From Okamejei kenojei (Eukaryota): DNA of 64,000 nucleotides. This document shows, piece by piece, positions 1,596 to 58,032 of this stretch. The notes under the pieces were generated by a model. The model had not been told where the DNA came from, did not search any database, and worked only from the letters and a program-made list of their open reading frames with translations. Where the stretch lies: assembly GCA_035221665.1 (NCBI GenBank), contig CM069134.1:23250001-23314000 (forward strand), in the 5' to 3' direction. The position numbers and the translations under genes are program-made. Numbering within the stretch: the stretch's first letter is position 1; every line of letters begins with the position of its first letter.

Positions 1596-1646
1596 AGATT
1601 ATGTCAATGTTTAGTGACTGTTAGTGATTATGTCAATGTTTAGTGA

Positions 1647-2550
1647 CAGACACAAAATGCTGGAATAACAGCGGGACAGGCAGCATTTATGGAGAGAAGG
1701 AATGTTTGATGTTTAGGGTCGAGATCCTTCTTCACACTGAAAGTCACGGGAAAGGGAAATTAGAGATATAGACAATGATGTAGAGAGATAAAGAACAATG
1801 AATGAAAGATATGCAAAAAAGTAATGATGATAAAGGAAACAGGCCATTGTAAGCTGTTTGTTGGATGAAAACGAGAAGCTGGTGCGACTTGGGTGGAGGA
1901 GGGATAGAGAGAGAGGGAATGCCAGGGTTACTTGAAGTTGATGAAATCAATATTCATGCCACTGGGCTGTAAGAAGCCCAAGCGAAATATGAGATGCTGT
2001 TCCTCCAATTTGCGTTTAGCCTCACTCTGACAATGGAGGAGACTTAGGACAGAAAGGTCTGTGTAGGAATGGGAAGGAGAATTAAAGCGTCCAGCAACCG
2101 GGAGATCAGGAAGGTTCAGGCGGGCAATCTATGTTTGGTCTCGCCAGTATATAAGAGTCTACATCTTGAACAATGGATACAGTAGATGAGGTTGGAGGAG
2201 GTGCAAGTGAACCGCTGCCTAACCTGAAAGGAATGTCGAGGTCGCTGGACAGAGTCAAAGGAGGAGGTATAGTGACAAGTGTTGCATCTTCTGCGGTTGC
2301 AGGGGAAGGTACCTGGGGAGGGGTTGGTTTGGGTGGGAAGGGATGAGTTAACCAGGGAGTTGCGGTGGGAACGGTCTCTGCGGAAGGCGGAAAGGGATAG
2401 AGATGGGAAGAAGTGACCAGTGTTGGGATCCCGTTGGAGGTGGCGAACATTTTAGAGGATTATGCGACTGGGGGGAGGAGGAACATGGGTGGAGCTGCAG
2501 GGTACAGAGGAGACACGAGTGAGGGCCACGGATAGGGGGGACACGGGGTA
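1647..2550 (-). mobile_element. Penelope-like element 3' part: Zn-knuckle, GIY-YIG endonuclease remnant, pLTR with decayed hammerhead
   Basis: Minus strand reads PGTFPCNRRRCNTCHYT and RQRFTCTSSNLIYCIHCSRCRLLYTGETK (GIY-YIG-type motif, ~2135-2195), then the terminal repeat at 1647-1745. Confidence 0.88.
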
Positions 2551-2551
2551 C

Positions 2552-3162
2552 CGTGTCTCCTCGGTACCCCGCAGCTCTGCCCTTGCTCCCCCTCCCCCTA
2601 ATCGCAACACAGGCAGAGTCCCCCTAGTCCTTAACTTTCACCCCATCAGTCGTTCGTTTGCACCTCCTCCAACCTCATCATGAACACCTTCGCGCAGCCC
2701 GTCTGAAACTACTTGATCTCCCGGTTGCTGGACACTTTAATTCTCCTTCCCATTCCTACACAGACATTTCTGTCCTCAGTCTCCTCCATTGTCAGTGCGA
2801 GTTTAAACGCAAATTGGAGGAACAGCATCTCATTTTTCGCTTGGGCAGCTTACAGCCCAGTGGTATGAATATTGATTTCTCTAACTCCCTCTCTCTCTAT
2901 CCCTCCCCAACCCAAATCGCACCAGCTTCTTGTTTTCACCCACAAACAGCTAACAATGGCCAGTTTCCTTTATCATCGTTATTTTTCTAACATTTCTTTT
3001 ATTCACTGGTCTTTAATTCTCTACCTGATCATCATCTATATCTCTCGTTTCCCCTTCCAGTCACTTTCAGTCTGACGGGTCTCGACCCGAAACATCACCT
3101 TCCTTCTCTCCGGAGATGCTGCCTGTACCCTTGAGTTACTCCAGCTTTTTGTATCTATCTTC
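2552..3162 (+). mobile_element. Penelope-like element 3' part, internally deleted, inverted relative to the neighbouring copy
   Basis: ORF 2658..2990 EHLR..DLPVAGHFNSPSHS..RKLEEQHLIFRLGSLQPSGMNIDF is a GIY-YIG C-terminus; pLTR at ~3066-3162. Confidence 0.88.
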
Positions 3163-36500: not shown

Positions 36501-38603
36501 GGCATCGCTCAGAATCATATGCTGCCCTTGACTTAGTTTCACTCTCTCTCTTATAATAATGCGCTCTGGACCCATATTGTCACCATTCCCCCATCATAGG
36601 AGAGACTGCCCCTTCCTGCACAAGCTCATCTCTCAGGCCACCCATCACTAATTGCCTTGATTGTTCCCCTGGCACCAACAACTGACCTATGTTTCACTGG
36701 TTGATGCCAAGGGAACCATCAAGGCAAGACTTCAAGACTGAACAAAGACTGCAAATCCAGCCAGCAACTTGCTGCAACTGCAAAACACAAATTGAAACCA
36801 AAGCCACAGTGTTCTTGTGTTTTCAAGAAAATACAGGAACTTAAAATCAGTGTTACACTTGAACCTTAGACTGTTACTTGCGTTGTAAATATTAGTCATT
36901 GTATACAATCTCGATTGAAGCTCTGCTCCAGAGCAATGAATAATATTAAAGCGATTTCAATAGTCACTTCAAGAATCAAATTTGTATCTATTACTATATT
37001 TACCACTCTTTAGACTTGAACACATGGTAAGGTTGCTTTTTATTCTTTACGATTACCCTGAGAGAATGACGTGCGCTGCAAGTAGGCACCTGTCCCGTGT
37101 AGTAAAGGTACTCTCATAATGCTGTTAGATAAGGAGACCCTGGTTTTGGAATTGGTCAAAATGAACAAACAGTGAAACACTAAGTTTCAGTGATGTATAA
37201 TTTTGAGGTAAACTTTAAGGGGTGTATCACCACATAGCTGTCACTTTTGCTTTTTTTAAGTAATGGAGGAAACAGGTTTGGGAAGTACTGTTGAGTTATT
37301 GCAGTTCAATCTCAAGAGAGTACATATTGTAGCCCAAGGTGGAAGTATACATTTATGGATGAGTTGCTGCTCTTGTGGATTACTTTAACCTAGATATCAG
37401 TGAAGTACTGGAGTATTGTTGCTGCTGCAGCCATCTGGACAAATCATTACACCCCTGATGGGCATTCTAGAGGTTGGTAGCCATTGGGAATCAAAAAGCA
37501 TGCCACTTACTGCAAAACACGCAACATCGGAACTGTCCATTAGTCACGGCATTTGTTTAGTTATTCTAGTTGAATTTCTAGTTCATGGTCATCCCCAGAA
37601 AGTTGCTGGCAAAGGTTCCACTTTTGAATGTCTGGGCTTTATGAGAAGGCTTCCTCCTACTTGATGCTGTTATTTTCATGCCTTGTGCTTCATCACTTAG
37701 TCTGCCACCTAACAATCCAGCCTTTGCCCTTTGCCAATGCAAAATTGGCTAACAGAAATCATTAAAAAAATGAATTCCAATCACAAAACCAGAAACCCCC
37801 AGAAACATATTGTGCACAATTTATATTGGGCATAAAATATTTTATCATATATTTTTTCACATATTTTGTATTTTGTTTTATATATAATGTCAAATGTGAT
37901 TTAATAACAAAAAGGAAATAACACATCTCGTTAGAGAAACATCAAGTAATGAAATGACATCTACCGTTTGTCTCTCCAAAGATGCTGCATGATCTACTCA
38001 GTATTCCAGCATTTACTCTCTTCAGTTTATATTATGGTAGGGAGTTTTCAATTGTATAAAGTTTTAGACCATCATTGTTTAAAACATTAACCATTTAATG
38101 CATGTGGTTAATCAAGAATGCAGTTGTGAGTAATCCATTAGAATCTTCATTTGGTTGTATGATTCTAAATCATTTTATATATACAAACTGTTCAATAACA
38201 TTTTTGTTGTGTTGATTATAGATTAGAAAGAATAAAAGTTCAGCAAGTGTGTGCTTTTGGTGAGAATGAAGCTGGCTAAATAACTCACCATTATTGGACA
38301 AATAATAACTTATAGTCATGCTTGTTATTAATCAAAGTTTTGCTGAAAAAAATAATTCTACTTATAAAATTCATATTAAGAGTTACTTTAAAATACATTT
38401 CCAAAAGAGCATGAGTTCAGAAATATGAAACACTTGTTCACAGAAGATGCGTGATTAAAAAACTAAAATAATCACTTTACATTTCTATTTCTTGAATAAA
38501 TATAGCTACAGGGCCAATATCAGTAGCCAAATACATTCAAAGTTTATCTTATAACAGAACACAGAGAAGAGGAACAAACAGATCACTTTCAGTTTGGACC
38601 AAA

Positions 38604-38850
38604 GATAGACACAAATTACTGCAGTAAATCAACGGGACAGGCAGCATCTCTGGAGAGAAGGAATGGGTGAGGTTTTGTGACGAGACCCTTCTTTAGACTG
38701 ATCTCCCTCCACCCTGAAGACAGTCTGAAGAGAGGTCTCGACCCAAAATGTCACATTCCTTCTCTCCAGAGATGCTGCCTGCCCCGCTGAGTTACTCCAG
38801 CATTTTGTGTCTATCATTGGTTTAAACCAGCATCTGCGGTTCCTTTATAC
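38604..38850. mobile_element. Palindromic dimer of Penelope pLTR/hammerhead units
   Basis: Minus unit 38604-38701, ~19-bp spacer, plus unit 38721-38850; the arms are imperfect reverse complements. Confidence 0.85.
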
Positions 38851-38904
38851 ACACTCCGTTTGGAGACAGAATTGATAGGTTCTAGAGGGATTGTTGTTGG
38901 GGTT

Positions 38905-43990: not shown

Positions 43991-45256
43991 AGGTAAAGAT
44001 CAGTATCATCAAGTTATGAATCAAGTCGAGAGTGTTTAATTGTCATATGCAATGGGAATGGAACAATGACATTCTTACTTGCTACAGCCTTACAGGCTTA
44101 TTAATGCAATACTACAACACATAAATATACAATAATCAATAATACAATGATTTATCAGTAATTCTTGGCCACTAGACAATAAGAATGTAAACTAAAGTGC
44201 GTGGAGCAACCAAAGCAAAATCCATAATAGATCAATGGTAGGGCAAGGTTGTGGTTAGGGTTGTGCAGTGTATTTCACAATCCTGGTGGTTGATGCGAAG
44301 AAACCGTTCTTGAACCTGAACCTCATGGATCTCAGGTTCTTGTGCCATCTTCCCAAAGGTAGCAATGAGTTAAGAGCATGGCCAAGATGGTGTGGGCCAT
44401 TGATGATTGTAGTTGCCTTTTTGAGGCAGTGGTTCCTGTAGATCTCTTCGATGGTGGTCAATACCTGTGGTAGAGCGGGCAATGTCCACAATTTTCTGTA
44501 GCCACCTTCCTTCTTGGATATTTCAGTTACTGTGCTAGGTCCTGATGCAACCAGTCAGTATGGTCTCTGCCATTCAGTGACATGCCAAATTTCCTCACAT
44601 TTATAGCAAAGTGGAGGTGCTGAGGAGATTTCTTTGTGATTGCATCAATGTGCTGGGCACAGGACAGATCTTCAGAGCTATACTTGCCCAGGAACTAAAA
44701 ACTATTGACTCTCTCCACTGCCACCTCGTTGATGAAGATAGGTTCACGGATCCTTGGCTTTTCCTTTCTGCAGTCAACAATCTGCGTTTCCAAGTAGCTG
44801 GTGTTCAGAGCATGATTGTTGTTCTAGCATTATTTAGTTAGATTATCAATCTCTGTTCTGTACATTGACCCATCGTTACCTGTTATTCAACCAACATCCG
44901 TGGTAATGTTGGCAAATTTAAAGTTGGTGTAGGAGGTGGGTGTGCACAATCATGGGTAGAGAGAGAATAGAGCAAGGGAATGAGAACACAGCCTTGAGGT
45001 GCCCCTGTGCTGATGGTCATCGAGGAGGAAGTTTTCTGGCCAATTCGTATTGATTGAAATCAGTCAATGAGGAAGTTGAAGATCCAATTGCACAGCGCTA
45101 AGCAGAGACCCAGTACCCTGAGTTTGATAATACGTTTAGACGGGATGATGGTGTTAAACAATTATATAGTCAATGAAGAACAACCTGACGTACAAGTTCT
45201 TATTATCCAAGTGGTCCAGTGCAGAGTGGAGAGCTAGAGAGAGCACATGTGCAGTT

Positions 45257-45395
45257 CTTCTTCTTTTTTCGTGTGGCGTGCACAGCCTAAAGTTGATGGA
45301 CAACTTGTTCTATTTGACCTTCCGCTTGTGCACGTCGAGTTGATTTCATTAGTCGAAAAAGGGCAGACCACATGAAAGTTGCAATCTTCCACCCC
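45257..45395 (-). mobile_element. ~140-bp non-autonomous retroposon with 5' HDV-like ribozyme, structured tail and (GAA)n end
   Basis: TSD catgtgcagtt (45246-45256) / cacgtgcagtt (45397-45407); nested in the Rex-Babar copy. Confidence 0.8.
45342..45395 (-). ncRNA. HDV/CPEB3-like ribozyme fold (partly decayed)
   Basis: GGGGUGG(P1) AA GAUUGCA(P2) ACU(P3) UUCAUGU(L3) GGU(P3') CUGCCCU(P1') UUUUCGA CUAA(J4/2) UGAAAUC(P2'). Confidence 0.72.
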
Positions 45396-45739
45396 TCACG
45401 TGCAGTTGATTCTATCGTGGTGCGAGGTGAATTGAAGTGGGTCCAGGTCCTTACTGTGGCAGAAGCTAATATGTGTCATAATCAACCTCTCAATGCACCT
45501 CATCACAATGGATGTGATTACCACCAGTCAGAAGTCACCAAGGCATGTCGACTTGGTCTTCTTGGTCATTGGTATTATAGATATCCTTTTAAAGCAGGAT
45601 TTTAGACCACAGTAGTGAGAGTCACATGTAGCATATACATGTGAGAATGAACACTTATGTTACAACAATTCAAGCTGTCAATTGAAATTTAAGTATCAAA
45701 TTCAGAATGCTGATTTAATTCTGAAATTATCATAGATAT

Positions 45740-57549: not shown

Positions 57550-58032
57550 AGTTGGACACTTTTATCCTCCTTCCCATTCCTACACAGACCTTTCTGCCCC
57601 CAGTCTCCTCCATTGTCAGAGTGAGGCTAAATGCAAATTGGTGGAACAGCATCTCATATTTTGCTTAGGCAGCTTACAGCCCAGTGGCATGAATATTGAT
57701 TTCTCTCACTTGGCATTCCCTCTCTCTCTCTATCCCTCCCCCACCCAAGTCGCACTAACTTCACATTTTTCACCCTACAAACGGCTTACAATGGCCTGTT
57801 TCCTTTATCATCATTACTTTTTCGGCATATCTTTTATTCATTGTACTTTATCTCCTGACATCGCTGTCTATATCTCTCGTTTCCCTTATCTCTAACCAGT
57901 CTGAAGAAGGGACTCAACCCGAAACTTCACCCATTCCTTCTCTCCAGAGATGCTGCCTACCCTGCTGAGTTACTCCTAGCTTTTTGTGTTTATCTTCGGT
58001 TTAAACTAGCAACTGCAGTTCCTTCTTACACA
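57550..58032 (+). mobile_element. Penelope-like 3' end (GIY-YIG C-terminus + pLTR with hammerhead) between CR1 segments
   Basis: GHF.PPSHSYTDLS..KLVEQHLIFCLGSLQPSGMNIDFS; CTGAAGA-A-GGGACTCAACCC-GAAAC-TTC at 57901-57928. Confidence 0.88.

Follow-up and report, generated by a model that had tools for sequence, protein, structure and literature searches.

Ribozyme-headed non-autonomous elements of the R2 and L1Tc/ingi groups, as well as bipartite Vingi derivatives, are already known. The SIDE of R2 in Drosophila (Eickbush and Eickbush 2012, PMC3414825) is 529 bp long, occupies a single site in the rDNA at low copy number, and carries a ribozyme which cleaves in vitro, as do those of NARTc and SIDER (PMC4035085). 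RIME, NARTc and SIDER of trypanosomatids are short, dispersed derivatives of Ingi-related LINEs with a 5' HDV-like ribozyme; their hosts are protists, L1Tc possesses an RNase H, and the shared hallmark measures 77 nt (PMC4035085). Vingi elements, unlike Ingi, have a compact single ORF with apurinic endonuclease (APE) and reverse transcriptase (RT) domains and no RNase H (PMC13708176), and derivatives such as those of Vingi-1_EE are bipartite (PMC5786205, PMC13708176). As to the ribozyme itself, drz-Mtgn-1 and the theta ribozymes, from metagenomes and from gut phages near tRNAs, keep the nested double pseudoknot without P4 and place the catalytic C first in J4/2; such minimal forms do cleave, in a C-dependent manner (PMC10879173), and a catalytic role of the J4/2 C is also given in PMC13635239. 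Kojima 2018 (PMC5786205) lists six ribozyme-bearing clades, Vingi not among them, and leaves open why only few clades make bipartite derivatives.

In this study, we describe an element which resembles each of these systems in part. It differs from the R2 SIDE in being 139 bp long and dispersed in thousands of copies, with 11-bp target site duplications (TSDs) and a partner of the APE type. It shares with the trypanosomatid elements the small size, the dispersal, the Ingi-related LINE origin and a 5' HDV-like head, whereas no RNase H was found on its side and the head spans 54 nt, without P4. With the Vingi derivatives it shares the bipartite structure and a partner with a compact APE and RT frame lacking RNase H, and with drz-Mtgn-1 and theta the P4-less fold, which here heads a retroelement in a large eukaryotic genome. 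As a whole, it is highly probable from the sequence comparisons that we are dealing with a deleted Vingi-type LINE which has a likely self-cleaving, minimal HDV-like head and is likely copied in trans. This would extend 5' ribozymes to Vingi-type LINEs, beyond the literature found, and would place a P4-less HDV-like fold in a eukaryotic genome in thousands of copies. Neither a Vingi ribozyme nor an end-to-end helix was found in the literature searched, in the portions available, and those of PMC7245038 hold nothing on end pairing; a prior record may exist in Repbase, Dfam, patents, supplements or other papers.

The window copy and its family

The window is the whole stretch of DNA analysed, 64,000 nt of the Okamejei kenojei genome (contig CM069134.1, positions 23,250,001 to 23,314,000). 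The element lies on its minus strand and is numbered from its first base, G1:

45257..45395, minus strand: copy of a non-autonomous bipartite retroposon (SIDE), 139 nt, derived from LINE family A according to sequence comparison
45342..45395, minus strand: predicted HDV-like ribozyme fold, nt 1-54, without a P4 stem; G1, the predicted cleavage site, is 45395
45389..45395, minus strand: P1 5' strand, nt 1-7, partner 45360-45366
45380..45386, minus strand: P2 5' strand, nt 10-16, partner 45342-45348; 6/7 pairs in the window copy, 7/7 in the majority sequence
45367..45379, minus strand: P3-L3-P3', nt 17-29; L3 of the window copy has one C-to-U change
45358..45359, minus strand: J1/4; GU in the family, giving the P1.1 C-G pair, and UU in the window copy, with P1.1 lost
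45349..45352, minus strand: J4/2, CUAA; the predicted catalytic C, 45352 (nt 44), is intact in the window copy
45327..45334, minus strand: 5' arm of the predicted end-to-end helix, nt 62-69, inherited from the LINE 5' UTR
45297..45323, minus strand: linker joining the LINE-derived 5' and 3' parts, made up of a short duplicated segment and one strand from a small hairpin
45257..45296, minus strand: tail, taken from the 3' end of the LINE: final codons, stop codon, 3' UTR and (GAA)n
45277..45284, minus strand: 3' arm of the predicted end-to-end helix, nt 112-119, 8/8 complementary to the 5' arm
45397..45407, no strand assigned: TSD copy 5' of the element, with one extra A at 45396 before G1
45246..45256, no strand assigned: TSD copy 3' of the element, 10/11 identical to the other
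44900..45600, minus strand: host sequence, a decayed RT fragment of an older LINE in the same orientation as the element

The first-pass annotation of this DNA had described an insertion with an 11-bp TSD (10/11) and a (GAA)n end, and all of these are present at the positions it gave, on the minus strand. The letters and pairs that it assigned to P1, P2, P3, L3 and J4/2 are all correct for the window copy: P1 has 7/7 pairs including G1-U, P2 6/7 and P3 3/3 with one G-U, L3 reads UUCAUGU and J4/2 CUAA. It had likewise noticed that the G after P1' is missing; a U stands in its place, and P1.1 is lost. The head of the window copy carries five changes against the family majority (45377, 45372, 45365, 45359, 45346). 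Among them L3 loses its C, P1.1 its G and P2 one pair, and with P1.1 and one P2 pair gone the copy was probably dead on arrival. An Rfam search of the window and the element returned no ribozyme match, and a strict HDV descriptor rejected the window copy. By itself this copy is weak evidence, and it is its family, together with the related ones, that carries the case for a ribozyme. The flanks of the element translate, on the same strand, as two halves of a single continuous, decayed RT frame, and therefore the element inserted into, and split, an older LINE, which may be Rex1-like. The window is full of other interspersed repeats, some of them present as inverted pairs (1644-3162, 38591-38853, 57553-58032 and others).

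The family was sought in the 2.76-Gb genome by DNA search and by exact patterns, the counts from the latter being lower bounds. The DNA search returned 2005 candidates, and all 40 that were scored match; apart from the window copy itself, they do so at 92-95% over the whole element (39 copies). Exact matches number at least 10,153 for the first 23 nt from G1 (in both subfamilies, and including the few LINE heads), at least 2,839 for the 3' 25-mer and at least 335 for a marker of the older subfamily, against 0 for the reversed control in each case. The family is multi-copy, as had been proposed. It is also present in contigs from sequence runs of three organisms. A further subfamily, with another linker after nt 70, was seen in about 100 contigs in each of three large runs.

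A pile-up of 5' ends at G1, put forward by the annotation as a mark of the family, was found in copies chosen by their 3' end only. Twenty-eight of the first 30 align from nt 1-3; the remaining two are L048, which is full length and split by a later insertion, and the truncated L034, and the G1 end is reached by 29/30. TSDs were identified in 53/57 copies compared with 1/57 in the control (59 loci were sampled and two were dropped for want of a long match), with a mode of 11 bp, and they directly adjoin G1 in 41 copies, with one extra base in 9 and two in 3. Mean identity to one majority-type copy in this sample is 96.5%. The majority sequence restores the features that the window copy lacks, as had been anticipated, namely L3 UUCACGU, P3 ACC/GGU, P2 with 7/7 pairs and GU after P1'; we take this L3 to be identical to the loop of the CPEB3 ribozyme. 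Among 28 tail-selected copies with a long alignment, the core is fully intact in 14 and the J4/2 C is kept in 25, as it is in the window copy. Subfamily changes in the head either keep the pairing (U-A to U-G in P1) or are located in J1/2.

A predicted HDV-like fold in five LINE families

A majority-type copy of family A presents the nested double-pseudoknot order with P1 7/7, P2 7/7 and P3 3/3, and has a 7-nt L3 with U20 and G25, while G1, at the base of P1, coincides at the DNA level with the 5' end of the element. Only 5 nt lie between J1/4 and J4/2, where sister families B-E have at least 16 nt, and family A is thus a 54-nt minimal form; the "minimal P4 region" of the annotation is right as to these 5 nt, P4 itself being essentially absent.

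Five LINE families of this genome (A-E) start with an HDV-like fold in which the letters differ and the pairs are kept. Forty loci of the sister families were fetched through an endonuclease search, and many of these copies start at one same G. Their P1 strands are GGGAGAG/CUCUCCU in B, GGGGGAG/CUCCUCC in C, GGGGCUC/GAGCCCU in D and GGGCUGC/GCAGCCU in E. With two metagenome families (M1 and M3) added, one P1.1 pair is found in 7/7 families, C-G six times and U-A once, and a C opens J4/2 in all seven. Covariation, a further point raised by the annotation, was examined in one hand-picked copy per family in the register-fixed columns of P1, P3 and P1.1, with J1/2 lengths chosen by the author; 77/77 cells are paired and 7/11 columns change on both sides, including P1.1 from C-G to U-A, so that pairs of the fold are kept with changed letters across the LINE families. 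Permuting the families gave a result as good as the observed one in 1/5040 cases (mean 59 cells).

A strict HDV descriptor accepts 15/40 sister-family loci, and gave 1 weak match in 509,840 nt of Markov control and 2 weak matches in the window. It accepted 0/18 metagenome 5' regions, several of which are truncated or decayed; in two of these, L272 and L212, the order was recognised by eye, the loops being variant, and these two are the metagenome families used above. The HDV-like models of Rfam, a kind of check that the annotation had called for, match 3/9 heads (D, D2 and M1), all below the gathering threshold (E 0.008-0.023; 34.1 and 32.1 bits to RF02682, 25.2 bits to RF00622), and do not match family A, which thus has no score above the HDV-like threshold. 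Judging from order, pairing and covariation, the head almost certainly takes an HDV-like fold, and cleavage is very probably, on this model, what makes the 5' end of the element at G1.

The partner LINE and the probable pairing of its ends

The partner was found by way of a C-terminal motif regarded as a mark of Vingi/Ingi proteins. A degenerate pattern for this motif gave 1,846 matches against 102 in the control and defined at least four families; no partner LINE was present among the tail-selected small copies (0/30). Family A has 134 exact matches. The last ~40 nt of the small element, comprising the stop codon and 3' UTR, are common to 28/30 family-A LINE 3' ends, and both of its ends occur in sense, 3.0-3.1 kb apart, in the near-full-length copies L184 (3.09 kb), L189 and L151. 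L189 (3,044 bp) matches nt 1-72 of the small element at 87.5% and its tail at 92.5%. The existence of an autonomous-type LINE with both ends, as suggested by the annotation, is thus borne out by L184 and L189. The small element keeps the first ~72-80 and the last ~40-45 bases of the LINE, without the ORF, and the older subfamily follows the LINE to about nt 80, then passes through a short duplicated linker into the tail. The element is an internally deleted copy, or bipartite SIDE, of a LINE of Vingi type found in the same genome. Since both ends come from one LINE, it is a SIDE in the sense of PMC3414825 and not a Pol III SINE, and the SINE part of the earlier description has to be replaced. 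Other, independent internal deletions of the LINE occur as single copies (L126, L127, L128, L384).

Open pieces of the partner copies match RVT_1 (E 9e-29) and Exo_endo_phos (E 1e-8), and the closest intact homologue, of 1019 aa, is 75% identical over the RT piece. APE and RT are found in 35/35 intact aligned homologues (925-1043 aa), and RNase H is absent from these 35 and from the 5 partner pieces scanned. A PDB search yielded distant RTs of L1, R2 and group II introns only. By this architecture and the C-terminal motif, the partner is classed as a Vingi-type LINE, which agrees with the Vingi half of the earlier proposal (Vingi/Ingi or RTE type) and not with its RTE half. All partner copies seen are broken and, because of this, the mobilising protein is inferred; the shared ends suggest that it would be the partner's own, acting in trans.

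Short family-A copies begin at G1, unlike many long ones: the long copies (L184, L151, L187, L190) often start directly past the 5' strand of P1, at nt 8-13. Many full-length copies with TSDs were seen in the Vingi-type families C, D and E (L311, L313-L317, L319-L321, L324-L326), and more full-length copies of families C-E are L330-L334 and L337-L341. These three families look younger than A, since some copies hold open frames of more than 500 aa.

The two LINE-derived ends of the small element are complementary to each other. Every base of nt 62-69 is complementary to its partner in nt 112-119, and in the LINE these arms lie 3 kb from each other, at its two ends. Both the MFE and the centroid fold contain this helix, for the window copy as well as for L024; as a whole, the folds of the small element are no better than those of shuffles (z about -1.1). 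For a comparison across the seven families (A-E, M1, M3), the segment just after P2' was paired with the segment just before the tail, the segment sizes having been set after pairings had been seen. With single old copies, the own-family duplex is significant for D, E, M1 and M3 and not for A (p=0.37), B (0.09) or C (0.15), and sliding segments elsewhere in single copies of A, B and C pair equally well. When majority segments (each from 1 to 102 copies) were used, the own-family duplex outranked all others of its row in 6/7, 7/7 and 7/7 families at three segment sizes, and 1/5040 permutations was as good at each size. The helix of family C was never significant against shuffles. The register is much alike in all seven families: the helix begins a few nt downstream of P2', and the strand opposite it stops a few nt short of the tail. 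The duplex is specific to the family and includes G-U pairs and bulges. From these comparisons, a conserved panhandle joining the ribozyme-adjacent arm with the 3' UTR is likely, and it may have a role in recognition by the LINE protein.

Several further details of these ends were seen. In family C (L315), the 3' UTR repeats the 5' strand of P2, and a pairing of that repeat with P2' could therefore compete with the fold of the ribozyme. In family E (L337), the 3' helix arm overlaps the last codons and the stop. A second SIDE family of this genome, of ~196 nt and independent of the first, has a D-like head with a 16-18 nt P4 region, a (GAA)n tail and TSDs; it was identified at 19/30 loci (among L405-L433, e.g., L416, G000:C1:40975346 region), with similar end pairing.

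A proposed two-part end module, competing explanations and inverted heads

In the mechanism that we propose, a copy would be carried along in a longer Pol II transcript, from which cleavage by the ribozyme just 5' of G1 would release an RNA starting at G1. The segment following the ribozyme would then pair with the 3' UTR before the tail, holding both ends in one helix, and the LINE protein would probably recognise this joined-end helix. The endonuclease would nick the target and the RT would use the (GAA)n tail for priming, which would yield TSDs of some 11 bp. As the helix needs both ends, this would account for the amplification of those derivatives alone that retain both. In more general terms, we lean slightly towards the view that Vingi-type RNAs carry a two-part end module, in which a panhandle arm comes directly after an HDV-like ribozyme defining the 5' end, and that the protein recognises the joined ends. 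Such a module would explain why the clade spawns bipartite mini-elements, as well as the frequent second priming just past the 5' arm in family A. The helix of both ends would thus offer a testable answer to why few clades make bipartite derivatives.

Precise ends at G1 are compatible with a promoter as well as with cleavage, and in L1Tc and NARTc the same 77 nt serve as promoter and ribozyme (PMC4035085). The head could then be mainly an internal Pol II promoter starting at G1, like Pr77, with the ribozyme as a second or slow function. A DNA promoter, however, needs no kept RNA pairs, and the letters of P1 and P2 differ among the families while the pairs hold; we regard a mainly promoter role as unlikely, and it could coexist with cleavage. 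Less probable still is a P4-less head which cleaves poorly, a passenger that came with the LINE sequence and now serves as a fold protecting the 5' end or as a site for protein binding. The lack of P4, the single Watson-Crick P1.1 pair, the 2-nt J1/2 and the missing Rfam match of family A would fit such a head, and a cap-like protective role of such folds on R2 templates is given in PMC13708176. An exact G1 end in thousands of independent insertions would nevertheless still need a maker, the subfamily changes in the head keep pairing or sit in J1/2, and P4-less ribozymes do cleave (PMC10879173). Cleavage at G1 remains our preferred explanation of the 5' end.

The complementarity of the ends might also be a by-product of a fold-back inverted repeat or of base composition rather than a working helix. 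Both family-A arms contain the palindrome GUGCAC, family C is not significant, and other sliding segments pair as well in A, B and C; against this stand the similar register in seven families with unrelated letters, the family specificity, and the G-U pairs and bulges, and we hold a by-product to be doubtful, about as much so as the promoter. An ordinary Pol III SINE whose head is merely ribozyme-like would have the same size, TSD and LINE-derived tail, but this reading is contradicted by the head, which is the LINE's own 5' end, by a tRNA search of the element that found none, and by the absence of A and B boxes from the sense strand by regular expression, as the annotation had already remarked; its probability is close to nil. 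The deleted Vingi-type LINE with a likely self-cleaving head is the reading that we retain. If it is correct, host pre-mRNA could be cut by the many copies expected within introns, and the 139-nt element would be a natural minimal template with a 54-nt P4-less ribozyme.

In 9/91 family-A LINE copies, chosen by the 3' coding motif, the copy begins with an inverted ribozyme head. Eight of the inverted pieces span from about nt 1-10 to nt 72-109 and are joined to a truncated 3' part, and L102 is the ninth; two more such copies, L071 and L073, lie outside the set. The breakpoints fall just past the 5' helix arm. One TSD encloses both pieces in 5/8 of these copies and overlaps the inverted piece by 1-4 bases, and for this reason they are regarded as single insertion events. 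At least two inverted heads (L119, L368) reach bases that only the LINE possesses, a point in favour of a second priming event on one and the same RNA; for the shorter ones, the abundant SIDE RNA is a possible source. Twin priming of L1 likewise leaves a 5' piece in inverted and a 3' piece in direct orientation within one TSD, with a short overlap at the target end, whereas in family A the inverted piece is the first 72-109 nt of the RNA and ~1.7-2.7 kb are missing between the pieces. No literature on twin priming with Vingi was found. Families B, C and D show no inverted head in 22 copies with a visible 5' end (26 examined), which limits the hotspot, as far as these copies go, to family A. 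Vingi-1 is under development as a means of RNA-only gene insertion, and its templates include both UTRs (PMC13708176); a self-cleaving 5' UTR, an end helix and an inverted-head hotspot would bear on the design of Vingi-1 templates and on their by-products.

Conventional long 5' inversions of the twin-priming type were also seen in families C, D and A (L310, L329, L342, L385). L102 (G000:C2:7464094 region) consists of an inverted family-A head and a family-A coding part followed by a family-B 3' end, a chimera whose sequence suggests template switching between Vingi-type families.
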